DNA of 64,000 nt, taken from a virus. Its lineage: Duplodnaviria > Heunggongvirae > Uroviricota > Caudoviricetes. Each line of letters opens with the position of its first letter. The stretch's first letter is position 1. Below are positions 1 to 33,004 of the stretch, in pieces. The stretch is taken from the IMG/VR virus record IMGVR_UViG_3300005758_000043; one strand, 5' to 3'. The translations under genes and the position numbers were made by a program. The notes below the pieces were generated by a model that was not told the origin of the DNA, made no database searches, and saw only the letters and a program-made list of their open reading frames with translations.

Positions 1-114
1 CGGTATTTGAAATTTTGGAAGTGCCAGTTCATGTTTGTATTATGCCCTCAATAGTTAAAATTGCAAGCAAAAAAATAAGGGCGGCAGCTTTCGCCGCCAC
101 CCCGTTTTTTTCAA

Positions 115-966
115 TTAAAATTGCGTTGCAACCTTGGCACGAATGCCAGCGAGTGTCTGCTCCTTGGTAATCACACCATCCTTGAACACCTGCTCAAAGG
201 CACAATTCTTAACTTCGTCCCAAGTAGCTTGGTCCTTCATAACAAAGTCACCATCCTTTTCATAGACAGCAATCAGTCCCTTGGCACTCTTCTTGAGTCC
301 GCTATCGGTCTTCGGGTCTTTGAAGATTTCAACACCCTGAGTCTTACCATCAACGGTCACTTCACCATAAGTGGACTTGACAGCGAAGCCATGAGTATCA
401 CGGGTAACGATGGCATCCATGTCGATAGCACCCTGATAAGTGAAGCTTCCGATACCATACACAAGGTTGGTCGAAGCAAAACCCTTGGCAGCGAGACGTT
501 CACAGATAGCGGTAGCACGATCAATGGTGATACTGTCTCCATAGATGGCTCCAATATGACTATCAAGCTGCTTGTAGCCTGTGCTGGTAATGGTGCCACC
601 GAAGATTTCCCAAAGACACTGGATCATGCCCTTAATTTCAAGTTCAGTGAGTTCTTTCTTCGTTACTTTACAACGATAGTAATGACCATGCATATCCATC
701 TTATAACGTTCAATTTCATCCTCTGTATATCCAGTAACAATCTTAACTGGATCACCCGAATCAGGACGAATGACAACCTTACCATCACGGGCCATGATCT
801 TGTCCTTGAGGATAGCAGCGATGCCACCATCAGGATTCACAACGTTCCAGAAGTCCCAAGTATCCGAAACGATACTCGCGATACCATCAGGGTAGGTTTC
901 AGTAATGAGGCGTTCGAAAAGAAGGAGTTCGCCAAGGCTTTGCTTTTGAGTTGCGTTTAGTTTCAT
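115..966 (-). CDS. C-terminal portion of a NAMPT-family nicotinamide phosphoribosyltransferase (NadV/Namat-like)
   Basis: The translation contains the RPDSGDP motif and aligns with the C-terminal half of nicotinamide phosphoribosyltransferases (SIVSDTWD ... GIGSF ... KSAKG). It has its own ATG. The N-terminal half is a separate ORF at 1699..2529. Confidence 0.7.
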   Translation of the reverse strand: MKLNATQKQSLGELLLFERLITETYPDGIASIVSDTWDFWNVVNPDGGIAAILKDKIMARDGKVVIRPDSGDPVKIVTGYTEDEIERYKMDMHGHYYRCKVTKKELTELEIKGMIQCLWEIFGGTITSTGYKQLDSHIGAIYGDSITIDRATAICERLAAKGFASTNLVYGIGSFTYQGAIDMDAIVTRDTHGFAVKSTYGEVTVDGKTQGVEIFKDPKTDSGLKKSAKGLIAVYEKDGDFVMKDQATWDEVKNCAFEQVFKDGVITKEQTLAGIRAKVATQF

Positions 967-1052
967 AGTGTTTGTAGTATGGGGCAGTGTTTTATATTTG
1001 AATTTATTATAACGTAGTTTTTATTGATTAAATTACAGCTTTAAGTGTAAAT

Positions 1053-1763
1053 ATGTATATGACTGAATGTTCAGAACGACCACAAGATACCAAATCATGC
1101 ACCAAATGTCAAGAAGAAAAACCATTGAACGAGTTTCCTAAGAGTTCTCGATTTAAATCTGGTTTTAATTCCCAATGCAAATATTGTTTAAATACCGCAT
1201 CTAAAAAATGGAGGGATGAGAATTCCGAAGACTTCAAAAACCGACGCAAGGAGCATTATTGGAAAAATGTTGATAAAATGCGAGAAGAAAAACGTCAATA
1301 TGTTGAAAGATCAAAGCCTCAAAAAATTGCTTATGATGCTGAGTATCGAAAGGCCAACAAAGATAAGATAGCAGCTTACAAAAAGAATTGGGAATCTAAA
1401 AAGAAAGACGATCCAATTTTTAAAATCAAAAGAAATTTAAGAAGACGAGTTCACCATGCTTTGATGGGAAGAACCAAATCGGATAATACGTTTAATCTTA
1501 TTGGCTGTTCAGCAGAAGAATTTAAAGCTCACATTGAAAGTCTTTGGTTGGAAGGTATGTCTTGGGATAACTATGGACCCTCTGGATGGCACGTTGACCA
1601 TATCAAAGAATGCCATACGTTTGATTTATCTGATCCAAAACAACAGAAAGAATGTTTCCATTATTCCAACCAAAGACCTCTGTGGGCTAAAGATAATCTT
1701 AGCCGTTCACGGCCATCACATAATCGTAATATTCGTAAGACTCATCAATCTCGTCAGGGATAG
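1053..1763 (+). CDS. HNH homing endonuclease inserted antisense between the two NAMPT halves
   Basis: N-terminal Cys4 zinc-binding motifs (CTKCQ ... CKYC). C-terminal HNH signature (GWHVDHI ... NQRPLWAKDN). Confidence 0.65.
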   Translation: MYMTECSERPQDTKSCTKCQEEKPLNEFPKSSRFKSGFNSQCKYCLNTASKKWRDENSEDFKNRRKEHYWKNVDKMREEKRQYVERSKPQKIAYDAEYRKANKDKIAAYKKNWESKKKDDPIFKIKRNLRRRVHHALMGRTKSDNTFNLIGCSAEEFKAHIESLWLEGMSWDNYGPSGWHVDHIKECHTFDLSDPKQQKECFHYSNQRPLWAKDNLSRSRPSHNRNIRKTHQSRQG

Positions 1764-2529
1764 ATTCAATCATAACGGCAGTTCCAAGGCACATGCAACT
1801 GTGTTCGGACGCTGCCACAGAAACACCAACCATTTCCTTGTCACTATCAGCATTGTAATACTCCTCAAGGAAGTCAATGGCAGGAAGCGTATCAGTTCCG
1901 ACAAAGCTAAGAAGGTGAGCAGCGCCACTCATGGTAGCAGCTTCAAGACCCATCATACCACGGAAAGAGAAATCGTGTCCTTGGAATTGGACGAAATCAA
2001 TCATTTCAGGATTGGTCTTCTTAGCCCACTCATTAAGAATCCTACGATAAATAAGAGCGGTAGTTGCACTGGTGCTACAAGCCCAAGTCGAGCAAGACAG
2101 AATGGTTTCAATGGCATTGGTAAGCCAGAAGAAACGAGCATCAGTATTGAACACAACGAACATCGGCACACGAAGGTCAACGTTGGAACCTTCAGGCAGA
2201 GCCCAAATTTCAAGCGGAAGATAACCAAGAGCGTGAAGATCACGAATATGCTGGTCGCCAATATTGTTGACGCCAAGGTAATTCAGAAGGCGACGACCAT
2301 ACTTCTTGGTAACTTCATCCAGAGGACGAGAGAAGAAAGTGCGTTCCCATTCATCAAGCAGATACTTCTTCATGAAGTATTGCAGACCGAAATTGATCAC
2401 CTTCTTGATTCCCTTGACGCGAGTGCCGCGTGCAGTAAGATTCGAAAAGACCAGTTCGCTATTGCTAGGATACTGGCGGCGATGATCGACTTTGTAACCA
2501 TCAACGAGGAGTGGAGCGAGTGTATTCAT
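1699..2529 (-). CDS. N-terminal portion of the NAMPT-family phosphoribosyltransferase
   Basis: YKVDHRRQYP, GTDT and AASEHS motifs match the NAMPT N-terminal half. The last ~32 aa (CMCLG...VNG, nt 1702-1797) have no NAMPT counterpart and are read-through into the insertion. A TTGACA/TATACT promoter lies at 2562-2589. Confidence 0.7.
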   Translation of the reverse strand: MNTLAPLLVDGYKVDHRRQYPSNSELVFSNLTARGTRVKGIKKVINFGLQYFMKKYLLDEWERTFFSRPLDEVTKKYGRRLLNYLGVNNIGDQHIRDLHALGYLPLEIWALPEGSNVDLRVPMFVVFNTDARFFWLTNAIETILSCSTWACSTSATTALIYRRILNEWAKKTNPEMIDFVQFQGHDFSFRGMMGLEAATMSGAAHLLSFVGTDTLPAIDFLEEYYNADSDKEMVGVSVAASEHSCMCLGTAVMIESIPDEIDESYEYYDYVMAVNG

Positions 2530-2561
2530 TATTGTTTAGAGTTCTTGCTGAACGTGAGAGC

Positions 2562-2589
2562 AGTATAGCGATTTTAGATGTTTTGTCAA
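2562..2589 (-). promoter_or_regulatory. sigma70-like promoter TTGACA-N16-TATACT for the NAMPT-family gene
   Basis: Minus-strand -35 at 2584-2589 and -10 at 2562-2567. Confidence 0.5.
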
Positions 2590-2595
2590 CAACTT

Positions 2596-3570
2596 TCAGA
2601 GCTTAATTTCAAAGCAGTTGATCTTGTCGTTCAATTTATTCCAGTTTTTCTTGGAGTTCGTGACGAACACATGATCGAAGTAATCAACCATTTTGTTTAG
2701 TCCTTCAATGCAATCTGCATGAGCAGTGAAAAGCATCAGTTTGCCGCAATTTTTTTGCTTTAAAACTTCGCCCAAACCAATGAATGTTCCGCCCATCGAA
2801 ACAATATCATCAAAGATGATAGTTGGATGGCCACCAAGGTCGTCTGCTTGCACATGAAATTCTTTCAGACTACCATCACGAACATCGCGCACCTTTTCGC
2901 AACGAATCAAATTGACCGTGTTATACGGAAACTTCTGCGAAAGATAGGAAGCGATTTTTCCAACTCGCTTGCCTGCTCCAGCGTCAGGGCAAACAACATT
3001 AATCACAGAATCTTTTGCATTTGGGCAAGAAATGCGAACCGCTTCTTCGACGTAGCTCAGTTCATCAAGAACCTCTACATTGTTAAGAAGAGCAGGAGTC
3101 ACCTCACTGTGAGGTGTGAGAATAAACACCTGATCAAAACCACACGAATTAATCATGTCAGCAAAGATCTTGACGGTCAGAGGTTCGCCCTCATTACAAA
3201 CACGATCTTGACGAGCAGCAGGGAAATAGGGAAGAATCAGTTTAATGTTTTTGAAACCAGCGCGACGAGCGGCGTCATTGGCCAAAATGATATTCATCAA
3301 ATCTGCAACACTGTTGTATCGCTGAGTGATGATGAGATTTTCGAGAATACCAGCAGAACTCAGTGTATCCATTTCAATTTGGAAGTGCGGTTCACCTCCA
3401 TAGAAAGTCATGGACTTATGCTTGAGAAAGAAAAGATTTTCAGAGCTTGCAAATGGATTGAATCCTGCGTCGAGATTCAAAACAAAAGTTTGATCGGTCT
3501 TTGGAGTCCAGCGAATGTATAGGTGTTGCTTCATGCGATGAAGTGTGTCAGATGTTAAAGATTTTGTCAA
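2596..3570 (-). CDS. Ribose-phosphate pyrophosphokinase family protein (Prs / ADPR-pyrophosphate synthetase-like)
   Basis: PRPP-synthetase motifs are present: VVCPDAGAGKRVGKIA and IIFDDIVSMGGT (PRPP-binding loop). The ORF-track start is a TTG; the likely true start is the internal ATG near 3534. Confidence 0.75.
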   Translation of the reverse strand: MTKSLTSDTLHRMKQHLYIRWTPKTDQTFVLNLDAGFNPFASSENLFFLKHKSMTFYGGEPHFQIEMDTLSSAGILENLIITQRYNSVADLMNIILANDAARRAGFKNIKLILPYFPAARQDRVCNEGEPLTVKIFADMINSCGFDQVFILTPHSEVTPALLNNVEVLDELSYVEEAVRISCPNAKDSVINVVCPDAGAGKRVGKIASYLSQKFPYNTVNLIRCEKVRDVRDGSLKEFHVQADDLGGHPTIIFDDIVSMGGTFIGLGEVLKQKNCGKLMLFTAHADCIEGLNKMVDYFDHVFVTNSKKNWNKLNDKINCFEIKL

Positions 3571-3802
3571 ATTATTTTTTTGCTTGCTGATTTTATAATT
3601 CTGCGATTAGAAATTGTGTGCCTTTAATAGCTATCTTTTCAAGATCAAAATCCAAAAGTTGATCAAATTCTTCTTCTGTAATCCTATTTGTTGGAACGCA
3701 GATGACGTTTTCATGATCGTTCCAATACTTTTCGCCAAAGATTTTTCGAAGAATATCCCAATCAACAACCAAACAATTTGATTCGTATATGTCCATTGTT
3801 TT

Positions 3803-4324
3803 TTAATCTTTAATTTGTGGCCTGAAAGAACGTTTTGCATCAAAACCGTGAGCAACGATTTTGTCTTTGTCTGTTTGCGTGTTTGGCGGCTCGGGATTAT
3901 CCTTCAGCCAACCCAAAAAATTGTAAATACTCTGATACATTTCATCAGGCTCGATAATAGAAGCGAACTTGAAATTGGCCAATAGAGGAATCGAATAAAA
4001 AATCTTGCCGTTGTGATCAGATGCATCCATCAAAACAGGCTGTCTAAATTTCTCATTTAGAGGAGACTTTTTGCCGCGATAACGACAAATAAAATTGTCT
4101 TCCCAATATGTAAGCTGCTTGTCGGATTCAAAAAATAATTTGCGTGTTTTATGATGAACGACAATCGGGTAGTAAGTCCCACAAATAGAAATCAAAAACT
4201 CATTCCAACCAGAAAAGGGATCATGAACGATTTTTCCACGACGATCATAAACACGACTTTCATCAAAGCCGTATTTAGAAACCATGTGATCGTAATAATC
4301 ACGATACTTGCTGATGATTTTCAT
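3803..4324 (-). CDS. hypothetical protein
   Basis: 173-aa ORF in the minus-strand gene train; no recognisable motif. Confidence 0.35.
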   Translation of the reverse strand: MKIISKYRDYYDHMVSKYGFDESRVYDRRGKIVHDPFSGWNEFLISICGTYYPIVVHHKTRKLFFESDKQLTYWEDNFICRYRGKKSPLNEKFRQPVLMDASDHNGKIFYSIPLLANFKFASIIEPDEMYQSIYNFLGWLKDNPEPPNTQTDKDKIVAHGFDAKRSFRPQIKD

Positions 4325-4328
4325 AAAC

Positions 4329-4847
4329 TTACTTCAACTTGTAAATGTGGAACTCAATGTTAGGAAAGTGACTTTCAATACTTTCGAGGATTGCTGAAAC
4401 GATGCGCCAGTCGCCACCTGCGAGAGCAGAAGCCATTCCGTGTGGGAATGCCAGAGTATATACCTGATCTTGTTTTGATGCAACCAAATTCTCACAAATT
4501 CTCCACACTCCATTGAAGACCGCATCGTAACGAGCATTTCGTTCCATAGGATGACCATTGTTGCCAATGCCAACTTGGCCATAAAGATTAAAAATCTCAA
4601 AAAAACGATTGTCCCGCTCGATCAATGCAACGGAGAATGTTCCTAGCTTGCCCGCGCCATCGGGCGTTGCACAATCTGCGGCGTATGCTTCTGGATACTG
4701 TTCCTTGATGATTCGTGCGATACCTCCACCCATCACATGATGAAGGTTCGCACAATGAACCATGCCGTTCCATTCTCCTTCGAAAATATTTCCGTCAAAC
4801 TGCTTCATATTTTTAAGATTTAAAATACTTAGCGGCACGCTTCTCAA
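4329..4847 (-). CDS. Macro domain protein (ADP-ribose binding/processing)
   Basis: HVMGGGIARII matches the macro-domain Gly-rich ADP-ribose loop, and overall layout is macro-domain-like. The likely start is the internal Met at ~4808, which avoids overlap with the upstream ORF. Confidence 0.5.
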   Translation of the reverse strand: MRSVPLSILNLKNMKQFDGNIFEGEWNGMVHCANLHHVMGGGIARIIKEQYPEAYAADCATPDGAGKLGTFSVALIERDNRFFEIFNLYGQVGIGNNGHPMERNARYDAVFNGVWRICENLVASKQDQVYTLAFPHGMASALAGGDWRIVSAILESIESHFPNIEFHIYKLK

Positions 4848-5097
4848 GATTCAAATAACCATGCAAAATTGTTTCGCGGCGATTTGGCACAAGAGGAGCA
4901 AGAGCCTGATTAATACCAAGATTCTTGGCCTTGGCTCGGTGAATGGCAATCTTGGTGCCAATTTCCTTGTCGAAGCGATCTTGCGGCGAGCAAAGAGAAT
5001 ATCCGAAACGATAAATTCCATTTTCTTTGATTACAACAACAACTCCAACAGGATTATTGCGAAGATCACGAATGTAGTTTTTGAGGATATTGGTCAT
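4813..5097 (-). CDS. hypothetical protein
   Basis: 94-aa ORF; no recognisable motif. Confidence 0.3.
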   Translation of the reverse strand: MTNILKNYIRDLRNNPVGVVVVIKENGIYRFGYSLCSPQDRFDKEIGTKIAIHRAKAKNLGINQALAPLVPNRRETILHGYLNLEKRAAKYFKS

Positions 5098-5120
5098 TTT
5101 GTTTGTATTTATGTTATTTA

Positions 5121-5630
5121 TTATAGATTGTAAAACTTTTTGAATTCAATGCTCTTTTTGTAAAGAGTTTCAATCGTAGCGTAGGAAAACGTCTGACAAC
5201 CGACATGAATGCCATCAGTTTCAAAAATTGCGGTGTGATTGTCGTTCAGCTTGTAGGAATTGTCAACCTTATTTTCAAGCCATTTGATCACTTCAAGAGT
5301 ATTGCTTTCCCAAAAGTAATCATAAAGACCATCACAGCCTTGCCACTCTTTATCTTTTCCACGAAACTCAATAGCAAGCCATGGATTCTTTTTGAAATCA
5401 TTAGTGTATTGTTCAACTGAACGATCATCAAAACACTTGTAGCCGAATTTCTCTGCAATAGTGAGCAGAGTGGAAATGTCTTTAGGCTTAACCTTTACAT
5501 TAATAGATGATGCCATATGTTTACTTGGTTGAGATATTGTCGTAGGTGGCGAGAGCTTCGCGAATCGCATCAACAGGAATGCTTTGGCATCCAACTTGAA
5601 TATATCCAGTATTGGCGGTGATATTGGCAA
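5121..5630 (-). CDS. hypothetical protein
   Basis: 169-aa ORF; the likely start is the internal Met near 5519. Confidence 0.35.
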   Translation of the reverse strand: MPISPPILDIFKLDAKAFLLMRFAKLSPPTTISQPSKHMASSINVKVKPKDISTLLTIAEKFGYKCFDDRSVEQYTNDFKKNPWLAIEFRGKDKEWQGCDGLYDYFWESNTLEVIKWLENKVDNSYKLNDNHTAIFETDGIHVGCQTFSYATIETLYKKSIEFKKFYNL

Positions 5631-6138
5631 CGTATGACTTGTTGAGCCTCACTTCAATTGGTTTTGGGGCAACCCTCAGATTGCTAAGAGCAGCACTAAC
5701 AACAGCCCACGGAAGCAGCGTGGTTTTGGAAGGAGCATGAAAACATGCATAAAATTTTGCTTGAGAAATACCAATATCGTGCAGGTGCCTATTGATTTGA
5801 TGTTCAGCTTCAAACAGAGTTTTCAGCTTCTTTTCAAGTTTACGTTCAACCGCATAAACTCCATCATCATCATTAATATTAAATGAGTAGAGTTGGTTCA
5901 AGTTCTCAAAAAACTTATCAGCTTCCTTTGAAGTTTTGTATTCCCAGAATTCCAAACAAAAACCATCATCGGGATCACTATTAAAAGGATGAAAAAAATT
6001 AAAGATATATTCAACATCATGCCCGAGAACATTTTGCGTAATACTCAGTTGATCATCAGGATTGGCAACCTTGACCTTGCTATAAGCATCATAAAGTTTC
6101 TTAGCAAGCTTGAGGTCGATTAGGCTTTCGTTTTTCAT
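5521..6138 (-). CDS. hypothetical protein
   Basis: 205-aa ORF. The ATG follows a TTGACA-N17-TAAACT promoter at 6151-6179. Confidence 0.45.
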   Translation of the reverse strand: MKNESLIDLKLAKKLYDAYSKVKVANPDDQLSITQNVLGHDVEYIFNFFHPFNSDPDDGFCLEFWEYKTSKEADKFFENLNQLYSFNINDDDGVYAVERKLEKKLKTLFEAEHQINRHLHDIGISQAKFYACFHAPSKTTLLPWAVVSAALSNLRVAPKPIEVRLNKSYVANITANTGYIQVGCQSIPVDAIREALATYDNISTK

Positions 6139-6826: not shown

Positions 6827-7016
6827 CTTTATAGCGAATCCTCATGGTTCCTTTTTGAAGATGCAAAGTCAATACTTCAGCGCTAGTTTCGTGGATAATA
6901 TAATAATCCTGCATCCTTTCTTCATAAGGAAGATTTGCATCCAAAATCCAATTTGGATTACGACAACGAACAGCAATAGGAATAATCGGAAGTTTCATAC
7001 TGTTCCATCGTTCCAA
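6750..7016 (-). CDS. hypothetical protein
   Basis: 88-aa ORF. Confidence 0.3.
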   Translation of the reverse strand: MERWNSMKLPIIPIAVRCRNPNWILDANLPYEERMQDYYIIHETSAEVLTLHLQKGTMRIRYKDACGKTHTQDIKSISFFDKYDIIRK

Positions 7017-7333
7017 AAACCAAGATAAATAAACACGTTCTCTGGGCGATCATCATCCCAAGCAGCAATTACATCATACTCACTTTCAGGAAAACCCCTA
7101 GTTACGAGGCGCACATTTTCGAAATTTTGTGGTTGCAACCTTGGATCTTCAAGTTCAGCATTAGTTCTATTGATGCAAGTGTTAATAAAGCGCACAAACT
7201 CAATTGGCTTGCTGCTCTTGCGCTCATTACTCTGTTCTGTGATTGGAGTGTCGATGATCTTTGTCTTCATGAGAGGATTTTGTAATGGATTGATGGTTTT
7301 GTCAAGATTTTTTTCACACTGCGAAAGGAACAT
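6995..7333 (-). CDS. hypothetical protein
   Basis: A promoter at 7274-7305 points to the true start at the MKTKIID Met (~7273). Confidence 0.35.
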   Translation of the reverse strand: MFLSQCEKNLDKTINPLQNPLMKTKIIDTPITEQSNERKSSKPIEFVRFINTCINRTNAELEDPRLQPQNFENVRLVTRGFPESEYDVIAAWDDDRPENVFIYLGFWNDGTV

Positions 7334-8231
7334 TTCCTTTTAAAACTTTAGCAATCGCACAATCTTTGCCTTTGAGTTCAAACTCCCATACACAGTCGGC
7401 ATTGTTTTGAACAACTAGCGGAATGCAAGATGCAAATTCTGCATGACTGCGAGGCTTGTCTGGAGTGCCTTCACTCCAATGCATCACTGGAACAAAATTA
7501 CCCCATGTGTTTTTAAAAAGATTAAAATGGCAGAATGAGGAAGGATTAACTGCGTCATGCAAATTGTCAAAAACCAAAGGAAATGGATTGAAATATTTGT
7601 AGAGATTTTCGCAATTCCAAAAACCTTTGTCTTCGTTCTCAAGCACTAGGCGGCGACGAACACCGACACTGCATTGATTAAAAGCATTTCGGAAACGAAT
7701 CAAATAATCCATCAGGCTATCTTTGGCAGGATCAATCGACAGATTAAGATGCAAACACATAGGCGCAGAATAATTCTGAGCGCAACCAAACAAATCAAGA
7801 ACGTATGATTGATGATTGAGTTCTGCGATGGTCTTGCGGACTGTGCTTGGATTGAGCGATGGCAATACGTTGAACTGATCAGGATGAGACGACAGCGTTA
7901 CGTTAAGGCGGCGAGCGTCATCACCAGCTTGTTGCAAAGCTTCTTGAATTTCGGCCCAATCAGGCAAATCACTATAAAGCAAATTCAGAGTTTCGTCTGT
8001 AATCAAAGGAAACAAACTGCTCGAAATGCGATAATGTTTGATGCCCGATTGAGCGCAGTGGCGAATAATCAAACCAGAAAGGCGTGCATTATGCAGAATT
8101 CTGCCAGAAAGTTGCTCAATTGCAGTTTGGCGAGGCAAAGCGTTGAAACGAGAACGAGTCATCGTTTGAAACGCCATTGCTTTGTTTTGCTTTTTGAGAA
8201 TTTCGCTGATGCAGACGAGGCCGATGTTCAT
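7314..8231 (-). CDS. uvdE: UV DNA damage endonuclease (UvdE/Uve1 family)
   Basis: The N-terminus MNIGLVCIS... and overall ~300-aa TIM-barrel-type pattern resemble UvdE. Judged by eye. Confidence 0.6.
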   Translation of the reverse strand: MNIGLVCISEILKKQNKAMAFQTMTRSRFNALPRQTAIEQLSGRILHNARLSGLIIRHCAQSGIKHYRISSSLFPLITDETLNLLYSDLPDWAEIQEALQQAGDDARRLNVTLSSHPDQFNVLPSLNPSTVRKTIAELNHQSYVLDLFGCAQNYSAPMCLHLNLSIDPAKDSLMDYLIRFRNAFNQCSVGVRRRLVLENEDKGFWNCENLYKYFNPFPLVFDNLHDAVNPSSFCHFNLFKNTWGNFVPVMHWSEGTPDKPRSHAEFASCIPLVVQNNADCVWEFELKGKDCAIAKVLKGNVPFAV

Positions 8232-8280
8232 AATGAAACTCTAGCCATGTTCCGCTAAAATGCAAGCCTTTTTTTGAATA

Positions 8281-8556
8281 TCATTCGTGGGCCACGAAAT
8301 GCATTCCCGCAGCAATGATTTTTGCATCTTCAATTCCATTGCTGTTGATATTCAATGATTCTGATCGACCAAAACAAGAAACAGTTCTATTGCCAAAGCT
8401 TACGAAACCTGCGCCAATGCATTTTGCTCGCGTATGATAATACGATGATTTTTCTGCTGTTCTGTGATGAATAGTTGGAGAGAAAACCATGAAGTTTCCA
8501 TTTTCATCTACGATGTATTTTAATTGTCCGAACATATTAAATATAATTAAAACCAA
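8281..8556 (-). CDS. hypothetical protein
   Basis: 91-aa ORF. Confidence 0.3.
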   Translation of the reverse strand: MVLIIFNMFGQLKYIVDENGNFMVFSPTIHHRTAEKSSYYHTRAKCIGAGFVSFGNRTVSCFGRSESLNINSNGIEDAKIIAAGMHFVAHE

Positions 8557-8708
8557 AATCCCATTCGTTGATCAGATATTCGATTGCATCATGCACCTCA
8601 TCAGCAAATTGATTCTTTTTTGGAAACATGATTACTGCTTCAGAAGAAACATTTATTCCGTGCTGTTCAAGCAAATCAATTGCTTCTTGTTCGTTTTGGA
8701 AGTTCATT

Positions 8709-16382: not shown

Positions 16383-17591
16383 TTAATCCTTGTAAGGATC
16401 AAAGGTTTCTGAGCCAGCCATTGCTACTCCAATAGGAGTGAGAACATGGAGAATGCGAATAGTATCATGTTGAGCAAGCAAGACATCCCCCAGACGCTTG
16501 TAGCAATGTGGAGATTCGTCAACACCTGCTCCTCGCAAGACAACTCCTGCGCGATTAACCCATTCATCCATCATTGCCTGAGAAACCTTTCCTTCAGAAA
16601 TGCGAGTCTTTACTCCACCTTTCCACTTGACCTTGCCAGCCGCTTCATTTCGCGACATAACGCGACCTGCACCGTGAACGGTCGAATATAGAGAAGCAGA
16701 AGAAAATTCAGACTCAGCACCTTCAAGAATAACTGAGTTTTCTCCCATAGTGCCGCCGACAAAACCACGCTGATTAGGAAAAGCTGGAGTCGCTCCCTTG
16801 CGAACAACCCACAAATCTTCGCCACCATGATTTTCATACCAAGCAAAGTTATGATGATTATGAACTTCGTCCACAATATCCCCGCCAATGATGCGAGCAA
16901 CTTCGCGGCATACCCAATCGCGACCAGCGTAAGCATACTGACCAGCAAGATTCATTGCGGCGATGTATTCGCGGCCCAAATCAGAATTGGTGTCAAGCAC
17001 AACAGGATCTACAAACATTCCATCAGTTCCGCCACCAGCCTTGATATAATGCGATGCAATCTTATGACCAAGACCTCGCGATCCAAAGTGGACACCCACC
17101 CACACGCGACCCAATTCGTCATAAAAAATATCAACATAATGATTTCCAGAACCAACAGTCCCAAGCTGATTGCGAGCCATATCCTTTAGAGGCTTGATAG
17201 AATCAAGATCATTCCAAAGAGGATCGGAAAAAAGAGCATGATCTGAAACATCTTCTTGACCAGCGATATGTCGAGACTTTGAAACGCGACCAATACCGAA
17301 CGAAATATTTCTAGCTACTTCGTCCATGATGCGCTCCATATCCGATGCAATTTGTCCGTAATGAACATTCAATCGCACGGCCTTATTGCCACATCCAATA
17401 TCGAATCCAACTCCAGAAGGAGAAATACCGTTTCGATAAGCGACAACGCCACCGACAGGCACGCTATAGCCCAAGTGATGATCTGCCATTAGAGCAGCGC
17501 GAGCCGCACCCTTAGCAAGAACATTCTTCATTTGGTCAACGGCGTTCTGAATTGGTTCGCCAAAGATGGAGATGTTTTCAATCGTTTGCAT
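16383..17591 (-). CDS. rtcB: RNA 3'-phosphate/5'-OH ligase RtcB
   Basis: Motifs ADHHLGYSVPVGGV, GFDIGCGN and HGAGR. The ORF-track start (17615) lies inside the TTGACA/TATTGT promoter. The true start is the MQTIEN Met at ~17591, giving a leaderless mRNA. Confidence 0.8.
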   Translation of the reverse strand: MQTIENISIFGEPIQNAVDQMKNVLAKGAARAALMADHHLGYSVPVGGVVAYRNGISPSGVGFDIGCGNKAVRLNVHYGQIASDMERIMDEVARNISFGIGRVSKSRHIAGQEDVSDHALFSDPLWNDLDSIKPLKDMARNQLGTVGSGNHYVDIFYDELGRVWVGVHFGSRGLGHKIASHYIKAGGGTDGMFVDPVVLDTNSDLGREYIAAMNLAGQYAYAGRDWVCREVARIIGGDIVDEVHNHHNFAWYENHGGEDLWVVRKGATPAFPNQRGFVGGTMGENSVILEGAESEFSSASLYSTVHGAGRVMSRNEAAGKVKWKGGVKTRISEGKVSQAMMDEWVNRAGVVLRGAGVDESPHCYKRLGDVLLAQHDTIRILHVLTPIGVAMAGSETFDPYKD

Positions 17592-17597
17592 AAAGCG

Positions 17598-17626
17598 ACA
17601 ATACTCAAGATTCACTCAATTGTCAA
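17598..17626 (-). promoter_or_regulatory. promoter TTGACA-N17-TATTGT driving leaderless rtcB
   Basis: The -10 ends 6 nt before the ATG at 17591. Confidence 0.5.
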
Positions 17627-25414: not shown

Positions 25415-25509
25415 TGGAGGAAGGTAAGGGATTCGAACCCTTGGACCCCGTTATTCACGACATCTTCTCTTTAGCAAAGAGATACGTTAGACCGCTCTGA
25501 CAACCTTCC
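25415..25509 (-). tRNA. tRNA-Ser (anticodon GCU), class II
   Basis: Manual fold: acceptor GGAAGGT/ACCTTCC, anticodon loop UUGCUAA, long variable arm, T-loop TTCGAAT, CCA encoded. Confidence 0.7.
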
Positions 25510-25515
25510 ATAAAA

Positions 25516-25590
25516 TGGTCCGCGAGTCAGGGATCGAACCTGATTAGCTAGATTCACAGTCTAGGACATTACCAAATATGTTACTCTCGG
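25516..25590 (-). tRNA. tRNA-His-like (anticodon GUG)
   Basis: Anticodon stem CTAGA/TCTAG with loop CUGUGAA and a good T-arm; one A.G mismatch in the acceptor. Confidence 0.5.
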
Positions 25591-25598
25591 ATGAAAAT

Positions 25599-25672
25599 TG
25601 GCAGGTCCAGAGGGAATCGAACCCCCACTCGCTGATTCAAAGTCAGTTTTGCTACCATTACAACATGGACCA
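25599..25672 (-). tRNA. tRNA-Gln (UUG)
   Basis: Anticodon loop CUUUGAA, T-loop TTCGATT, weak pair at positions 1:72 as in bacterial tRNA-Gln. Confidence 0.65.
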
Positions 25673-25675
25673 ATT

Positions 25676-25750
25676 TGGTGCGGGATGAGAGAATCGAACT
25701 CTCAGCCTCTACTTGGAAGGAAGATATGTTAGCCATTACACCAATCCCGC
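25676..25750 (-). tRNA. tRNA-Gly (UCC)
   Basis: Acceptor GCGGGAT/ATCCCGC, anticodon loop CUUCCAA. Confidence 0.7.
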
Positions 25751-25793
25751 AATTTGAGGGGGCTTTCACCCCTCTGCTTTTATTATACACTTT

Positions 25794-27290
25794 TTATTGA
25801 CCTTTTTCAAGAGCAATAATGTAATCAACCACAGATTCGCTCCAGCCATCCACATGTGTCCACTTTCCATAGCCTACACCATTTCTGTAAGAGGCCACAT
25901 TGATCATGTAAGCCTTATCAAAAACGGGATCAGGAACTCGGTCAGCAGATTGTTCATCTGTGATGACAATGAGGCGATCACCAGATCGAAGATTCATCTT
26001 CTTAACTGATTCACCAAGATAGGTGCCTTGGTGCTTCTGAGACTTGCTGATTGCTTCGGCAAGGGCGAAGCCCCTACGAGAAGGAACAAGCTTTGTTTCA
26101 TAAGAGAAGCTGTGGACTTCGACAGTGCTGCAAATTTCACGAAGAAGCATTGCAACACCACATGCAGCATCGAGACGAGAAATGTCGCTCTTGCCAGAAA
26201 CCTTGCTATGCATCGAAACCGAAATATCAACAAGGATAATAGTCTTGCCAGAAAGCTTTTCGTGCTTATCCAAGCTCTTCAGCATGGACTCTTCAAGTTC
26301 AGCTTCATACTTAGGCGCATTACGCGCAGCAGAAATAAAACGGAAAGGAAGAACACGATCAGTCTTCATGTTTACCAAACTTTCGCGGATCAACTTTTCA
26401 TTGACGCCAGCTTGTTCCATGTTGCGCAGATTTCGAAGAAGAGCCAAAGCTCCAAGCTTCTTCTCATTGAGAAGGCGAGTCCAAGAAGCCTTTTTATCCT
26501 TAGAAGCTGAGAGTTCAACTTCCCAAGTATCAGGAGTCTTGAGTTCATCGTTAACCAGACGCTTCCAAAGATCTTCCTGCGCCTTAGAATTTGGGCGAGC
26601 ATGAACCATGAAAAGAACATCCTTCAACTTAACGGCACCATCTCGATTGTATTTTGCCAAGGCATATTCATCGAACTTAGTGAAAGCAGTCGCAAGACCC
26701 TTCTTGACTTGATTAGCAATTGGACACTTTCCTTCCTTCCAATAAATAGAAAGAAATTCAGAAAGCTCATCTGCACGCTGGATGATGCGAGACAGAGTAT
26801 CAGCAACATATTCACGCTGCTTTGGATTTTGAGCCATGAGTCGCGCAATATACAAAGGAGTATGACGGAGCTTCATGTTTTCGCGAGCTTCAATAGCAAT
26901 TTCCATTGCTTCTTTGCCACTAACTTTTGCTACGAGATCCTTGATACGATCTGCGATAGTCACGCCAGATTCATAAAAAGAATTTTCCCACAACATACAA
27001 GCCATAACAGAACGTCGAAGTTCTTCAAGAGGCTTGATTCTTTTCGCTACCGCGCCTTCGTGAGTGCGAATTGGCTTCGGAGTATTTTTTACGTTGGTCT
27101 TCATGTCGTTAATTGTATCTATATTTTCCTCGTAGTCAAGGATTTCTTCGGAGATTTTTTGTTTAGCGGTTTTTCGCGCTGTTGTTTTTGATTTTTTCCA
27201 ATTATAAGTATTGCAAGTTTCACAACCGCAATGGTCGCTGGCATGAATGCCCAAGCGAGATTTTGAAAGTTTTTGTCCGTAAGGTTTCAT
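25794..27290 (-). CDS. rsr: Ro60 / TROVE-domain ribonucleoprotein with C-terminal vWA domain (Rsr orthologue)
   Basis: AKYNRDGAVKLKDVLFMVHARP aligns with the Ro60 TKYKQRNGWSHKDLLRLSH region. C-terminal vWA MIDAS motif ILVDISVSM. The ORF-track start (27344) overlaps tRNA-mimic element Y1, so the likely start is MKPYGQ at ~27290. Confidence 0.75.
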   Translation of the reverse strand: MKPYGQKLSKSRLGIHASDHCGCETCNTYNWKKSKTTARKTAKQKISEEILDYEENIDTINDMKTNVKNTPKPIRTHEGAVAKRIKPLEELRRSVMACMLWENSFYESGVTIADRIKDLVAKVSGKEAMEIAIEARENMKLRHTPLYIARLMAQNPKQREYVADTLSRIIQRADELSEFLSIYWKEGKCPIANQVKKGLATAFTKFDEYALAKYNRDGAVKLKDVLFMVHARPNSKAQEDLWKRLVNDELKTPDTWEVELSASKDKKASWTRLLNEKKLGALALLRNLRNMEQAGVNEKLIRESLVNMKTDRVLPFRFISAARNAPKYEAELEESMLKSLDKHEKLSGKTIILVDISVSMHSKVSGKSDISRLDAACGVAMLLREICSTVEVHSFSYETKLVPSRRGFALAEAISKSQKHQGTYLGESVKKMNLRSGDRLIVITDEQSADRVPDPVFDKAYMINVASYRNGVGYGKWTHVDGWSESVVDYIIALEKGQ

Positions 27291-27337
27291 AGAAAAAATA
27301 GGGAAATAATTAATTACAGGCTTTTTGAACAGGAGTG

Positions 27338-27420
27338 CTACCATTACACCATACTCGGAATCGAACCGAACCGCCCGTGGGATTATGAAGTAACTGCAAT
27401 TTGCGCCACCTAAAGAGAAG
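27338..27420 (-). ncRNA. tRNA-mimic module Y1 (candidate Y-RNA-like ncRNA) immediately upstream of the Ro60 start
   Basis: Read on the minus strand: conserved leader GTGGCGCAAATTGCAGTTACTTCATAATCC. Then a T-arm (TTCGG TTCGATT CCGAG). Then directly a tRNA 5'-half-like D-arm (TG GTGT AATGGTAG CAC). There is no anticodon arm, and T and D are permuted relative to a tRNA. Confidence 0.35.
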
Positions 27421-27439
27421 AATTTCAGGGAATAGGTAA

Positions 27440-27560
27440 AAACGGATAGTTTTTGATGCTACCATTACACCACAAGGCATCTACGCCCAGCTTGGATTCG
27501 AACCAAGACCTTTTATTTACCATAATAAAGAAGTAGCCGTTTAAAATCGCCACTGAAAAA
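27440..27560 (-). ncRNA. tRNA-mimic module Y2, paralogue of Y1
   Basis: Leader CAGTGGCGATTTTAAACGGCTACTTCTTTATTATGG. Then T-arm CTTGG TTCGAAT CCAAG, a small hairpin GGGCGTAGATGCC, and a D-arm-like TG GTGT AATGGTAG CA. Confidence 0.35.
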
Positions 27561-27689
27561 GTTTTTTATATCATTCCAACCTTCGATCAGGTCGCTTGCA
27601 TACTTCCAACACCTTCAACAAGGTCATAGGCCGAAGCCTCTCAAGCATACTACGAGTCTTTTCTGCACCCTCATTGCGAAAGCTGGAAT

Positions 27690-27800
27690 GATACAAAAAG
27701 TTTGAGGCAACACAGTTGAAACGGTGGTTTTTCCGAGTAATGAAGTAACCGTTTCATTCAGCACTCAAATCTGTATCTATTATGCCGATATTCTGGCGAA
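27690..27800 (-). ncRNA. third paralogous unit, Y3 (shares the leader motif)
   Basis: Minus-strand GAGTGCTGAATGAAACGGTTACTTCATTACTCGG aligns with the Y1/Y2 leaders. A C(UUCG)G tetraloop hairpin (GGCTTCGGCC) and an ATCGAAGG motif lie downstream. Confidence 0.25.
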
Positions 27801-27894
27801 AGTCAATCGGTTTTTGAGAAAATTTGGTGGGTTCCAGACTCGCAGCGACCGTTTCAGGCTACGATCCTGAATGCATGTCGATCTTTCCCCCATT

Positions 27895-28045
27895 AATTGG
27901 TGGACATGTTGGGAATCGAACCCAAAGAGTGCCGCCGCACTACTACCATTCAGCCCGTCGAGTGGACCGAGAGGGAATCGAACCCTCACCTACACCATGT
28001 CATGCCCAAAATTGGTGGACCGCAGGAGAGTCGAACTCCTGTCCT
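27895..28045 (-). pseudogene. Three tandem pseudo-tRNA 3'-end units (T-arm + acceptor 3' strand + A-CCA) lacking 5' halves
   Basis: Minus strand: TTGGG TTCGATT CCCAA CATGTCC A CCA; GAGGG TTCGATT CCCTC TCGGTCC A; AGGAG TTCGACT CTCCT GCGGTCC A CCA. No complementary 5' acceptor strands within 120 nt, even allowing G.U pairs. Confidence 0.4.
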
Positions 28046-28561
28046 CAACAAATTTGTATTAACCTTCAAACATGCTTATATTTGATTCGTCAAAGTGAAT
28101 CACTCTCAGGGACATTCGGTTCTTGGTAGTTCCTACTTTGTCCTCCACCAGTTAATTTTTAAACTGAAAAAATTAACAAACCCAGTTTTTGCTCGATTTG
28201 ATACTCAGAAAAGAGCGAGCGTTCTTCTGAGCGTGATACTTACGCAGCAGCGAGAGAAGCCTTGCGGGCAACTTTTGCAGACTTACGGAAGGTGACAACT
28301 TTGTTTTTGCCGTTTGTTTTTTTGAGCGGATTTTTAAGGAGCCATCCGATCAACTCCTACATGCTAGTTAATATTTCACTTATCAAGTCGAAACCAGAAG
28401 CGGCCCATTAATCTTTTAAAATAAGCATTTCATCATTACCGAGATCTACGACACCATCTGCTGATGCTTTTGCTTCTTTGAATTGATTGTAGCAAATTGC
28501 TACTGCTTGCTTATTATCTTTGTATTCTGAAGAAATCTGCGATACGCAGCGACTTACAAAT

Positions 28562-29191
28562 TCATTTCTTTTTTCTTTGTTTTTTGGAGTGGGAATTGGA
28601 GGCATTTTTATGTTCTTTCTTATGACAAATTACACATAATGTCAAGCCATTTTCTAAATTAAAACGCAAATCAGGATATTTAGACCATGGCTTTATATGA
28701 TGAGCATTCAATTTTCCACCTTTTTGTTCACAAAATTGACATGTATATTGATCTCTTTCAAAAACGTCTTTACGCCATGCAGAATATGGTCCTGATCGTG
28801 ATTGACTTTCATATCTTCCTATTTTTACTTTAGAACGATCTTGAATCCAATTAGGATGGTTTTCTCCTCTGATTTTTAATCCGCCTTTTTGTCGGGATTC
28901 TTTGGTTGCTTTTGGAGGTTTAGGAATTAAACCTTCGGCCATTTTTCGAGACAAACTAATGCCTGCTTTTTCGCGACTTTCTTTTGTCGGTATTGGGGGT
29001 ATAAAATTATTAATTTCTGCATTTTTAATTCCCATGCAAGTCCGAGAACAAAATCTTTTTCTTTCTAAATCTCTATTCAAATAGATTAATATTTTTTCAC
29101 CGCAATTTTCGCACTCTTTTTCTCCTTTAATTTTGTATCCTCGCGATGCGAAGTAATTTTCTGATTTATTTTTAGGAGATGGAATTGGCAT
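28562..29191 (-). CDS. HNH endonuclease
   Basis: C-terminal YTCQFCEQ ... AHHIKPWS ... NGLTLCVICH. Confidence 0.65.
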   Translation of the reverse strand: MPIPSPKNKSENYFASRGYKIKGEKECENCGEKILIYLNRDLERKRFCSRTCMGIKNAEINNFIPPIPTKESREKAGISLSRKMAEGLIPKPPKATKESRQKGGLKIRGENHPNWIQDRSKVKIGRYESQSRSGPYSAWRKDVFERDQYTCQFCEQKGGKLNAHHIKPWSKYPDLRFNLENGLTLCVICHKKEHKNASNSHSKKQRKKK

Positions 29192-29199
29192 ATTTTATA

Positions 29200-29712
29200 T
29201 TACACCAAACTCTTCAAATAATCAAGTGTTAAAAAACAAGTCCCAAATTTAGGGTAAACCACATCAACACAAGTATTCACATAACGAGGATCTTCTTTAC
29301 GCCACGGCCCCCAACCTTTCATGATTGTATGCATATGAACATGACCGTGAACGTTCAGTTTGCACTTGCGCAATTCATCAGGATGAATCGGGCAATGACT
29401 GAGCCACATTCCTTTGTATTTGATGATTCCGTGAATTTCTTCGAAAACATTCAATTGATCGCGCGTGTCAACCAAGTCATCATGATTGCCTTTAATCAAA
29501 ATCTTACGACCCTTCAAATTGCCAAACAAAGCTAAAGAATGGGAATCGAATGCTGCATCGCCAAGAACATAAACGACATCATTTTTGTTGATGCGCTTAG
29601 TCCAATCTTCTTGGATGAGGCGAGTATTATCTTCCGAAGAAGATACAAACTTGCGATATTTAGCAATGTTTTGATGTCCAAGATGTGGATCGCCAATGAC
29701 GTAAACGCTCAT
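29200..29712 (-). CDS. Calcineurin-like metallophosphoesterase
   Basis: Motifs GDPHLG, GDAAFD, GNHD and HGHVH. Confidence 0.6.
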   Translation of the reverse strand: MSVYVIGDPHLGHQNIAKYRKFVSSSEDNTRLIQEDWTKRINKNDVVYVLGDAAFDSHSLALFGNLKGRKILIKGNHDDLVDTRDQLNVFEEIHGIIKYKGMWLSHCPIHPDELRKCKLNVHGHVHMHTIMKGWGPWRKEDPRYVNTCVDVVYPKFGTCFLTLDYLKSLV

Positions 29713-29719
29713 GCACTTA

Positions 29720-30370
29720 TTATAGCTTCAATTTATTCCATGTAAAGCCTTTTTTGTAGAATTTTCCCTTTTTTTCAAGGCATTCGTCAAATAATGCCAT
29801 CAGAGGCATATTAATTGAATTAAAAGACGAAAGAGGAGCAATCTTTTTGGGCATTTTCCCCAAGAGAATTGGATGATAGATGGAGGTCGAGTCGATCCAT
29901 TTTTGTTTTAAATAAACGTATTGATAATAAAACAAATAAAGATTAGCTTGCTGCGCATACTTTTCGGTATCGAAAAGTTTCCATTTTTTACCAAACGCTA
30001 AAGATCTCTTTTCGCAATCATGTTCTAAAGCTATAACCTCCATTACTGCCGCCCAATTTTTGGGGCAAAGATTTTGCTTGTCTAAATGCTTCCAAAACTC
30101 ATATTCATCTTTCCAGACGGCATGCTTTTCGATGCATTGAGTCATGTGAGAAAATTCATGACAATAAACCTGCTCAAATAATGGATTTTTTTTGGCGACG
30201 GTAATTGTTTCTCCGTCGCACCATCCTGAACATTTAGAATCTCCGAGATCTATGTTTCGGCTATTGGCGATTACAATTTTCTTTTTATGTTGACAGAGAT
30301 AATCAACAGTCCAATCAAAGAACTTGCAAAAATTCTCACCACAATCTTTAAGAAAATTGAATTTCATCAA
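29720..30370 (-). CDS. hypothetical protein with HExxH motif
   Basis: YCHEFSHMTQ may be a zinc-metallopeptidase motif. Confidence 0.25.
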   Translation of the reverse strand: MMKFNFLKDCGENFCKFFDWTVDYLCQHKKKIVIANSRNIDLGDSKCSGWCDGETITVAKKNPLFEQVYCHEFSHMTQCIEKHAVWKDEYEFWKHLDKQNLCPKNWAAVMEVIALEHDCEKRSLAFGKKWKLFDTEKYAQQANLYLFYYQYVYLKQKWIDSTSIYHPILLGKMPKKIAPLSSFNSINMPLMALFDECLEKKGKFYKKGFTWNKLKL

Positions 30371-30658
30371 ATGATAGTAATGTTAATCTCGAATAAATCA
30401 AGGCAATTTATTAATCAATTTGATGATTCCAGCCACGAAATAATCATCTTCTTGAGCTTCCCGCACAAATTCTTCATCTGTCCAACGATGAGAAGTAGAA
30501 TATTCTACATCTTCCATCACTTGACCATTTTTAATAAAATAATCTTTTTTCCATTTAAATTTAGAATAAAAATACTCCAGAACAATTCTTTTCTGCTCTT
30601 GATCTGAAATTTGAACTTTTAAATGTTGCGTTGCATGTATTTCCATGATGTTTGAAAG

Positions 30659-30762
30659 TGGTAGGAGTGGTGGGAATCGAACCCACGTTACTAACGGCTT
30701 ATCTAGCCGTTGCTCTACGAGATTATAAGTTTCGCCCTATGGCCAACATTAGCAACACTCCC
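30659..30762 (-). ncRNA. Aberrant 104-nt tRNA-like gene with ~26-nt insertion in the D region
   Basis: Acceptor GGGAGTG/CACTCCT + A + CCA and T-arm GTGGG TTCGATT CCCAC are good. The anticodon-like hairpin ACGGC-UAGAUAA-GCCGT has A at position 33. The D region is 45 nt. Confidence 0.3.
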
Positions 30763-30808
30763 ATTATTTAATAGTTCACAAGTTGTTATGAATTGTGTAA
30801 TAATATAT

Positions 30809-31345
30809 ATGAACTATGAAAAATTGCAAGATTTAATTTCAAAAAATTTATCTACTTACCAAATAGCAAAAGAAATGGATTGTTCTCAAACAACTATTAG
30901 ATATTGGTTGAGAAAATTGGGGTTAAATACCAACAATCCTCCTCAAGCAAAAGATTTAAAAACATTATTAAATGGAAGAAGCTGCAAGTGCTGCTCAAAA
31001 CAATTAATTGGTCAACAAAAGTTTTATTGCTCAATTGAGTGTAAATCAAAAAATACTTATTATAGCCAGCCTAATACAAATGAACGTCAAAAAAACAAAG
31101 CACTTAGTAGAAAATTAGAATTAATAAAAATGGCTGGAGGAAAATGCTCCAATTGCGGTTACAAAAAAAATTCTTCTGCCCTGCAATTTCATCATAATGA
31201 CCCACAAAACAAATCTTTTTCATTAGACTCAAGAATTCTCTCCAATACAAATTGGGAATCAATTTTAAAAGAATTTAGAAAATGTAAATTACTATGCGCT
31301 AATTGCCATTTTGAAATTCATAATCCAGATAAAAATATGAAATAG
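30809..31345 (+). CDS. HNH endonuclease with N-terminal HTH
   Basis: STYQIAKEMDCSQTTIRYWLRKLGL is a helix-turn-helix. C-terminal FHHNDP ... CKLLCANCHFEIH is the HNH motif. Confidence 0.65.
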   Translation: MNYEKLQDLISKNLSTYQIAKEMDCSQTTIRYWLRKLGLNTNNPPQAKDLKTLLNGRSCKCCSKQLIGQQKFYCSIECKSKNTYYSQPNTNERQKNKALSRKLELIKMAGGKCSNCGYKKNSSALQFHHNDPQNKSFSLDSRILSNTNWESILKEFRKCKLLCANCHFEIHNPDKNMK

Positions 31346-31415
31346 GGGCGATGGGAGTTGAACCCATTATCTAACCTTTATGAGAGGCCCGCATTAACCG
31401 TTCTGCTACACCCCT
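31343..31415 (-). tRNA. tRNA-Met/Ile2 (CAU), CCA not encoded
   Basis: Acceptor AGGGGTG/CGCCCCT, anticodon loop CUCAUAA, T-loop TTCAACT. Confidence 0.55.
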
Positions 31416-31433
31416 TTTAATTATAATGAAAGT

Positions 31434-31511
31434 TGGTAGCTCCAGTGGGATTCGAACCCACACTTTACAGATTTTAAGTCTGTTGCCTGCTGCCAGTTGG
31501 GCTATGGAGCC
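31434..31511 (-). tRNA. class-I tRNA with anticodon UAA (Leu codon UUA)
   Basis: G1.U72 pair, A73, 3-bp D-stem with large D-loop, anticodon stem ACAGA/TCTGT with loop CUUAAAA, 5-nt variable loop. Confidence 0.55.
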
Positions 31512-31594
31512 GTTTATGAAATCATTCTACACCATTTTGCGTCATAGTCAATACAAATCTGTAGAATTTGACAGAAAAAAGTGTAACATATTTT

Positions 31595-32002: not shown

Positions 32003-32024
32003 TATTGACAATCAATCTATATAA

Positions 32025-32060
32025 AAAGACCGCCTTTTACAAGACGGTCTTTTTTTTATT
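32025..32060 (+). terminator. rho-independent terminator after the Dps-like gene
   Basis: Stem AAGACCG/CGGTCTT followed by T9. Confidence 0.65.
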
Positions 32061-32065
32061 TTAAA

Positions 32066-32990: not shown

Positions 32991-33004
32991 TTGAATTTGT
33001 AGAT

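Follow-up and report, generated by a model that had tools for sequence, protein, structure and literature searches.

The phage pathway NARP1, which consists of Adps and Namat, and the related NARP1-AP, NARP2 and NARP3 have all been described in the literature. NARP1 has been found in 4.3% of sequenced phages, of which 15% encode Adpp as well. This enzyme, which in Vibrio phage Gary converts ADP-ribose-1''-phosphate (ADPR-1''-phosphate) to ADP-ribose (ADPR), is the defining component of the extended pathway NARP1-AP, published in 2026 (bioRxiv 10.64898/2026.01.28.702374). In Aeromonas phage Aeh1, another phage enzyme, NrdA, is split by mobE, and the tails derived from the insertion are essential for activity (Crona et al. 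2010, PMC3045599). Here we analyse a stretch of 64 kb (hereafter, the window) from the phage record IMGVR_UViG_3300005758_000043 of IMG/VR, in which homologues of Namat, Adps and Adpp lie between positions 115 and 4847 and the Namat gene is cut in two by a cassette carrying an HNH endonuclease gene. We consider it probable that this is a NARP1-AP locus with a working two-subunit Namat, split by a homing cassette.

The Namat homologue is encoded by two open reading frames (ORFs) on the minus strand. The N-fragment (1699–2529, 276 residues) matches Pfam NAMPT_N and the NAPRTase profile over its first 56 positions, and the C-fragment (115–966, 283 residues) matches positions 72–226 of the latter. 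Their coverage of phrog_448, the phage NAMPT family, is complementary (17–266 and 260–496, respectively). Between them, on the plus strand and therefore antisense to Namat, lies an HNH homing endonuclease gene (1053–1763, 236 residues; phrog_1035, phrog_2340 and phrog_2255), whose HNH / endonuclease VII-like product bears the motif WHVDH...NQRPLWAKDN. A preliminary description of the same DNA had listed a single NAMPT-family gene. Its family assignment agrees with the Pfam and phrog_448 matches, but the gene is not single, and neither the split nor the homing endonuclease was reported there.

To delimit the insertion we used 11 unsplit relatives from IMG/VR (loci L007–L015, L017 and L019), all of which encode one uninterrupted protein through the site, with 62–93% identity to the window in the N-part and 70–76% in the C-part. 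Their sequence ...EHSVMCLG-GMED-EVETFRRLI... corresponds to residues 1–249 of the N-fragment, four further codons, and residues 13–283 of the C-fragment; in L019, the closest of them, the site lies around GAACACAGCGTTATGTCTTTGGGTGGTATGAAGGATGAAG. The core of the window's N-fragment (1–249) ends ...SEHSCMCLG, just past the catalytic H243. Residues 250–276 are an element-derived acidic/aromatic tail of 27 residues, TAVMIESIPDEIDESYEYYDYVMAVNG, and residues 1–12 of the C-fragment are an element-derived head, MKLNATQKQSLG, which precedes its core (13–283). Together with the nucleotide identity to a second split locus, L006, the unsplit relatives place a mobile cassette of ~852 nt, to which we assign no strand, at about 931–1782. 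It contains the N-fragment tail codons and stop and the HNH gene, together with an AT-rich spacer and the ATG and 12-codon head that the C-fragment has gained; the last 21 HNH codons overlap the tail (1699–1763). A 7-nt direct repeat, GCCTTGG, is found at both edges of the insert (about 1781–1787 and 932–938). We do not retain it as a target duplication, its N-side copy being absent in the split relatives L168 and L167, and it may be due to chance.

We infer that the two halves are translated separately and form a functional enzyme. In the mechanism that we propose, the cassette would supply the N-fragment with a stop and a 27-residue tail and the C-fragment with an ATG and a 12-residue head, the two polypeptides would be made separately and assemble non-covalently into active Namat, and tail and head would assist this assembly. 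Since the active site draws residues from both fragments, non-covalent assembly is the most likely mechanism. A Shine-Dalgarno core motif precedes only 1 of 46 gene starts in the window (in two Vibrio phages, 16 of 30 and 8 of 8; in a Cellulophaga chromosome locus, 0 of 8), and the regions upstream of its start codons are A-rich. Because the window's genes almost lack Shine-Dalgarno sites, an A-rich context such as that of the C-fragment ATG is typical of this genome.

Both halves are full-length ORFs without a frameshift at all the split loci that we examined (the window, L006, L087, L088, L090, L091, L167, L168 and L169). Among the best 120 matches of the N-fragment, 34 are 255–300 residues long, and nearly all of these end 25–45 residues past EHS. 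Around two-thirds of these half-size matches have the tail motif (I/L)PDEIDESYEYYDY, and a second class has vEExxNExtGxWexI. About 60 of the best 119 matches of the C-fragment are likewise half-size, starting MKLxxxQKQRLGELLLF. Overall, dozens of metagenomic half-size clusters carry the conserved tail and head, and PHROGs holds two half-size NAMPT families (phrog_16547 and phrog_15800). Across tail and head, the proportion of nonsynonymous differences (pN, 0.05–0.36) is below that of synonymous differences (pS, 0.42 to above 1.0) in six of six pairs. In L168 (a 136.7-kb contig, Logan SRR33375187), stop, tail, a 30-nt gap, ATG and head are kept but there is no endonuclease gene, so its tail is not constrained by an overlapping ORF.

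For the cores of the N- and C-fragments, the ratios of nonsynonymous to synonymous substitution rates (dN/dS) relative to L087 are 0.12 and 0.17, respectively. These values are not taken to prove selection since the split, given that split alleles are interspersed among unsplit ones; the tail and head comparison and L168 take their place. When the concatenated fragments were modelled with AlphaFold2 (AF2), the NAMPT fold was recovered with a predicted template modelling score (pTM) of 0.87. Tail and head appear in the model as an ordered helix-loop-helix, with a predicted local distance difference test (pLDDT) of ~84, and the head extends the helix that follows it. An unsplit Namat in another IMG/VR record, L024 (4924–6777; IMGVR_UViG_3300044987_001050), has an in-frame insert of 95 residues exactly at the cassette site, which shows that the site tolerates insertions.

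The comparison with L006, an IMG/VR contig of 197.7 kb that has N-fragment, HNH gene and C-fragment in common with the window, points to recent mobility. Nucleotide identity to the window is 100% over 901–1800 and 86–99% in most flanking 100-nt bins, with low bins of 65% at 601–700 and 80% at 101–200, and drops to 39% just outside the gene; the Adps proteins of the two are only 59% identical. Such a decay of identity away from the endonuclease gene is the pattern expected of homing with co-conversion of the flanks, by which the cassette would move among phage Namat alleles. A split allele (P0046) and the unsplit L019 have N-cores that are 99% identical. Homologues of the HNH gene lie in or beside Namat in nine IMG/VR loci, including L086, which is on the L006 contig. 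Those with 45–80% identity are antisense inside Namat in L087–L090 and sense in L091, L093 and L094, and in L092 a related HNH gene stands beside an intact Namat. The HNH gene itself has a dN/dS of 0.15 relative to L087.

These loci belong to uncultured phages. A near-identity DNA search with window positions 1–6000 against cultured phages gave no match, no cultured relative was found, and the window's rIIA is at most 32% identical to that of any isolate. The HNH protein is at most 37% identical to proteins of cultured phages. None of the 40 such matches listed lies under a NAMPT annotation, and no isolate with a split Namat is named among them. There is about an even chance, in our estimate, that the cassette is a self-contained gene-splitting module, bringing along an endonuclease, stop and start codons of its own, and an acidic tail and a basic head that re-join the halves, and that it invades intact Namat genes in a large group of uncultured, probably Bacteroidota-infecting phages while leaving the anti-defence pathway intact.

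Other selfish elements were also observed. The window holds three more HNH endonuclease ORFs; tblastn with the HNH protein that splits Namat finds only itself, so none of them is paralogous. In L168, the Namat C-fragment (6862–8595) contains a canonical intein of ~295 residues between RPD and SGDP (...VVIRPD-CYSEDT...VCGN-SGDPVKIV). Together with the HNH cassette, this means that selfish elements of two or more kinds have struck the Namat of this phage group.

To compare the split enzyme with known structures, we used as query both fragments joined at the homologous junction. Against PDB 9W5X/9W5W, identified in the depositors' paper as the Namat of SPbetaL1, this query scores 493 bits; 9KE8 gives 368 bits and mammalian NAMPT ~178. 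By bit scores, it is nearer to a validated Namat than to mammalian NAMPT. The identity of 9KE8/9KEO (motif GAQTYQRNTRD) could not be established from the literature, and we use it as an unnamed comparator only. Of the SPbetaL1 ligand contacts, 19 of the 21 mapped are identical, the exceptions being A362, replaced by Ser (as in ICP1), and Y396, replaced by Ile. The aligned residues are D10, Y12, R37, F187, S188, R190, D213 and A240 in the N-fragment, and R67, D69, G143-D144-S145, G173-S174-F175, Y177 and T188-R189-D190 in the C-fragment. H243 of the N-fragment stands at the position of the catalytic His, as read from the printed alignment rather than mapped by script. R37 aligns with R40, the stacking residue of the SPbetaL1 clamp loop, a position for which the criterion is Arg, Lys or Tyr. 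The single substantive departure from SPbetaL1 concerns the adenine-clamp helix motif of the C-fragment core, GSxФxФxФTRD, which reads GSFTYQ-GAIDMDA-IVTRD in the window and its whole clade, with the first two aromatics and TRD kept. The clade-wide 7-residue insert in this clamp may mean a changed donor preference.

Next to Namat lies a gene of the Prs family (2596–3534, minus strand; 312 residues from M13, in an ORF that reaches a TTG at 3570), as the preliminary description had proposed; Pfam (Pribosyltran_N/Pribosyltran) and PHROGs (phrog_619, 222 bits) both support it. On TIGR01251 it scores 117 bits, close to the Adps of ICP1 (98) and SPbetaL1 (106) and far from E. coli Prs (423), and on other Prs-family models it scores 47–97 bits where the cut-offs are 296–536. 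By BLASTP, it matches ICP1 Adps with 140 bits and E. coli Prs with 75. The published 2026 Adps structure was not among the PDB matches, which were canonical PRPS chains only, and Adps was therefore compared through phage genome records. Loss of the PRPS alpha11-alpha12 region, a remodelled pyrophosphate (PP) loop and retention of the catalytic Lys185 are described hallmarks of Adps. The window's protein lacks the C-terminal alpha11-alpha12 region, and its K226 aligns with the catalytic K185 of ICP1 Adps, the lid Phe being kept as well. Its PP loop, DDIVSMGGTF, resembles that of SPbetaL1 (DDLSSFGGTF) and is unlike that of Prs (DDMIDTGGTL), and the Asp-Thr of the ribose-5-phosphate loop is absent.

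The third enzyme is a macro-domain protein (4329–4808, minus strand; 159 residues from M14, in an ORF that reaches a TTG at 4847). The likely starts of this gene and of the Prs-like gene, at 4808 and 3534, were judged by the N-termini of homologues. The macro ORF has no Pfam match at E<=0.01, but the protein matches phrog_335 ‘phosphatase’ with 110 bits; its homologues are ~159 residues long, and PF01661 is found on distant ones. The AF2 model (pLDDT 93) has as best Foldseek matches TARG1, Poa1p (6LFT/6LFR/6LFQ) and the DarG macro domain, at ~1e-9. An hhalign comparison of the family profile with the Adpp of Vibrio phage Gary gave a probability of 99.9 and an E-value of 3e-32 over the full length. 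We therefore predict from homology that this protein is an ADPR-1''-phosphate phosphatase. The preliminary description had held that a macro protein would fit ADPR metabolism, which a full-length Adpp homologue bears out, and had put it two genes away. Its macro domain stands (phrog_335 and fold), whereas its distance does not, as it is the third gene from the Prs-like one, with orf173 and orf67 intervening. The paper that described NARP1-AP uses as operational criterion a macro gene at most two genes from the NARP1 genes (bioRxiv 10.64898/2026.01.28.702374).

Homology and conserved residues thus assign the enzymes of this locus to a NARP1-AP type set, with the chemistry inferred from that assignment. 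Adpp would strip the 1''-phosphate off ADPR-1''-phosphate, Adps would pyrophosphorylate ADPR to ADPR-PP, and Namat would couple nicotinamide with ADPR-PP to give NAD+, so that the three enzymes together would counter NAD+-cleaving defences. The NARP1 (Adps and Namat) reading of the preliminary description is supported by the Namat, Adps and Adpp comparisons, and the checks that it had proposed, on the affinities of the NAMPT homologue and the Prs-like protein and on the presence of an NMNAT (NatV), came out on the NARP1 side as far as the window extends.

Several observations weigh against our reading, and part of them would fit canonical salvage, in which the Prs-like protein makes phosphoribosyl pyrophosphate (PRPP), the NAMPT homologue makes nicotinamide mononucleotide (NMN), and the latter is adenylylated by an NMNAT of the host or by one encoded by the phage outside the window (NARP2-like or NadV/Prs). 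The clamp motif is broken by the 7-residue insert and lacks its third aromatic, with Ile at the position of SPbetaL1 Tyr396, and AF2 models the insert loop at low confidence. The preference for Namat over Nampt is, as said, one of bit scores. The nearest cellular homologues of Namat (~60% identity) are chromosomal Flavobacteriia proteins, annotated at source as nicotinate phosphoribosyltransferase and encoded beside a Nudix-type NrtR regulator, in NrtR/Prs-like/NAMPT operons that are traditionally read as PRPP-dependent salvage. Two ORFs with no assigned function separate Adpp from Adps, and the window represents 64 kb of a genome of maybe ~200 kb. Namat enzymes moreover keep PRPP-dependent NMN synthesis in vitro (PMC12774641). 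We nevertheless judge salvage, which was the alternative of the preliminary description (NadV/NatV), to be unlikely. The Prs-like protein scores as validated Adps do, well under every Prs equivalog cut-off, and is missing both the C-terminal PRPS helices and the ribose-5-phosphate loop's Asp-Thr; the NAMPT homologue is far nearer to validated Namat than to mammalian NAMPT; and an Adpp homologue lies within the same gene string. The Flavobacteriia homologues themselves have the exact Namat motif GSFTYQYNTRD and a 280-residue, Adps-sized partner. NARP2 (Nampt/NadV and Nmnat/NatV) would lead one to expect an NMNAT and no Adps, whereas the window has an Adps-like neighbour, and no NMNAT or Nudix gene (CTP_transf_like, NUDIX) was found among its 41 other ORFs, for which 25 of the 26 families found were viewed.

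The two-piece Namat could also be a casualty, the cassette having inactivated a dispensable gene whose halves are recent pseudogene remnants kept by re-invasion. A homing element can spread at a cost and while harming a non-essential gene, near-identical alleles exist with and without the insert (P0046 and L019), and the window and L006 copies are so alike that little time has elapsed. The interleaving of split and unsplit alleles also means that the divergence behind the core dN/dS may largely predate the insertion. What makes a casualty quite unlikely in our view is that both halves are intact at every split locus examined and that tail and head are conserved as protein despite many synonymous changes. 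Conservation of the head would be pointless unless the C-fragment were translated, and in L168 split, tail and head have outlasted the endonuclease gene. A very different possibility, which we hold to be highly improbable, is that an intron (group I or II), a split intein or translational bypassing eliminates the interruption once the gene has been transcribed or translated, to yield full-length Namat. Phage genes broken near active-site codons often host introns or inteins, and a true intein is present elsewhere in the Namat of L168. The window nonetheless shows no Rfam match to the ribozyme core of a group I or II intron at E<=1 over positions 1–6000; just ~140 nt of the insert lie outside the antisense ORF; and where the HNH gene is sense (L091 coordinates) the three ORFs are in different frames. 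Tail and head, at 27 and 12 residues, are far under intein size, and their sum of 39 is below that of split-intein halves. The gap of L168, with its stop codon and new ATG, is 30 nt long, while that of the window (~730 nt) is over bypassing length.

From 6138 down to 115 every gene is on the minus strand, the antisense HNH gene aside, and the span of 115–4847 flagged in the preliminary description agrees with real ORF limits. Adpp to Adps form a string on one strand with intergenic gaps of 4–58 nt, and the order of macro gene, orf173, orf67 and Adps is the same in L019. Of the two ORFs with no assigned function between Adpp and Adps, orf173 (3803–4324, minus strand; phrog_4243) is 87% kept in L019, and orf67 (3593–3796, minus strand) is 91% identical there; the two (3593–4324) may be further accessories of the pathway. 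Between Adps and the Namat N-fragment we noticed a sigma-70-like promoter match on the minus strand, TTGACA-16-TATACT (2562–2589, 11 of 12 positions), which is a consensus match only, and the promoter type of the host may differ. Directly past the Namat C-fragment, also on the minus strand, is an intrinsic-terminator-like hairpin and T-run (78–103), the 11-bp stem containing 8 GC pairs and being followed by TATTTTTTTG.

The wider window is of phage origin, with rIIA/rIIB and tail genes and 30 tRNA genes. The latter form a dense array at 25415–39662 that covers nearly all amino acids, and a phage transfer-messenger RNA (tmRNA) lies at 28013–28406, with the tag peptide GKNKVVTFRKSAKVARKASLAAA. 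An RNA-repair and translation set comprises the RtcB ligase, cREC_REC (a cyclic-phosphate-processing receiver domain) and PTH2 peptidyl-tRNA hydrolase (16383–17615 and other ORFs). Further families found in the window are Mom, UvdE, ThyX and a nucleoside 2-deoxyribosyltransferase-like protein.

The Flavobacteriia homologues and the near-absence of Shine-Dalgarno sites suggest a Bacteroidota host. On the chromosome of Cellulophaga lytica (L166, 3376–6449) we observed an NrtR-like Nudix regulator, a 280-residue Prs-like protein and a 482-residue NAMPT homologue with GSFTYQYNTRD. NrtR regulators respond to ADPR. To judge from its genes, this operon looks like a bacterial NARP1; bacterial NARP1 homologues have already been reported.

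Taken alone, assignment to the NARP1 pathway is routine annotation and adds one more member to a common system that is already known. The HNH-split Namat with its conserved cassette tail and head appears, in contrast, to be a new form of the pathway's central enzyme, and we found no link of Namat or NAMPT to a homing endonuclease or a split gene in the searchable literature. The split recurs across a sizeable group of uncultured phages, with clear signs of recent homing and with the survival of an endonuclease-free derivative. If the halves reassemble, the ‘tails’ solution, of which Aeh1 NrdA is the one experimental example, would extend to a family that is common in nature. Namat would then be its second natural case, far more widely distributed than the first, and the earliest to involve a counter-defence enzyme. 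It would also mean that selfish elements colonise anti-defence genes at catalytic codons and that NARP1 counts requiring a full-length Namat miss the split loci. The split Namat is also a ready natural test case for the assembly of split enzymes.

The closest described systems are the NARP1-AP of Vibrio phage Gary and the NARP1 of SPbetaL1 and ICP1 (Osterman et al. 2024, 2026; Lan et al. 2026; Liu et al. 2026). As in these, the window has genes of the same three families in one direction, a Namat with the catalytic and most clamp residues, a short, truncated Adps with the catalytic Lys, and an Adpp with a Poa1p/TARG1-like fold. Its enzymes are only 28–47% identical to the validated ones, and it differs from these loci in that Namat is made of two polypeptides around an antisense HNH gene, the clamp has a 7-residue insert and Ile for the third aromatic, two ORFs stand between Adpp and Adps, Shine-Dalgarno sites are almost absent (1/46), and the nearest cellular homologues are from Flavobacteriia. 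The Flavobacteriia NrtR/Prs-like/NAMPT operons share with it 60% identity to the Namat N-fragment, the Adps-sized partner of 280 residues and the motif GSFTYQYNTRD, but they are chromosomal, with an unsplit gene, a Nudix-type regulator alongside and no adjacent macro gene.

The split, too, has likenesses among described systems. Conserved enzyme genes broken around an endonuclease gene, together with split inteins, have been found, mainly in environmental phage-like sequence (Dassa et al. 2009, PMC2677866); unlike these, the Namat fragments end in a 27-residue tail and a 12-residue head without split-intein halves, and protein trans-splicing is not expected. A direct precedent is nrdA::mobE of phage Aeh1, where a free-standing endonuclease gene likewise lies between the halves, which have their own stop and start and unique tails and share the active site between them. 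The window differs in the enzyme concerned and in its endonuclease, which is of the HNH family (that of mobE is GIY-YIG), is antisense and overlaps the tail of the N-fragment. The Namat split is further set apart from that of Aeh1 by its recurrence in dozens of metagenomic clusters, with the endonuclease gene in both orientations and once without it.

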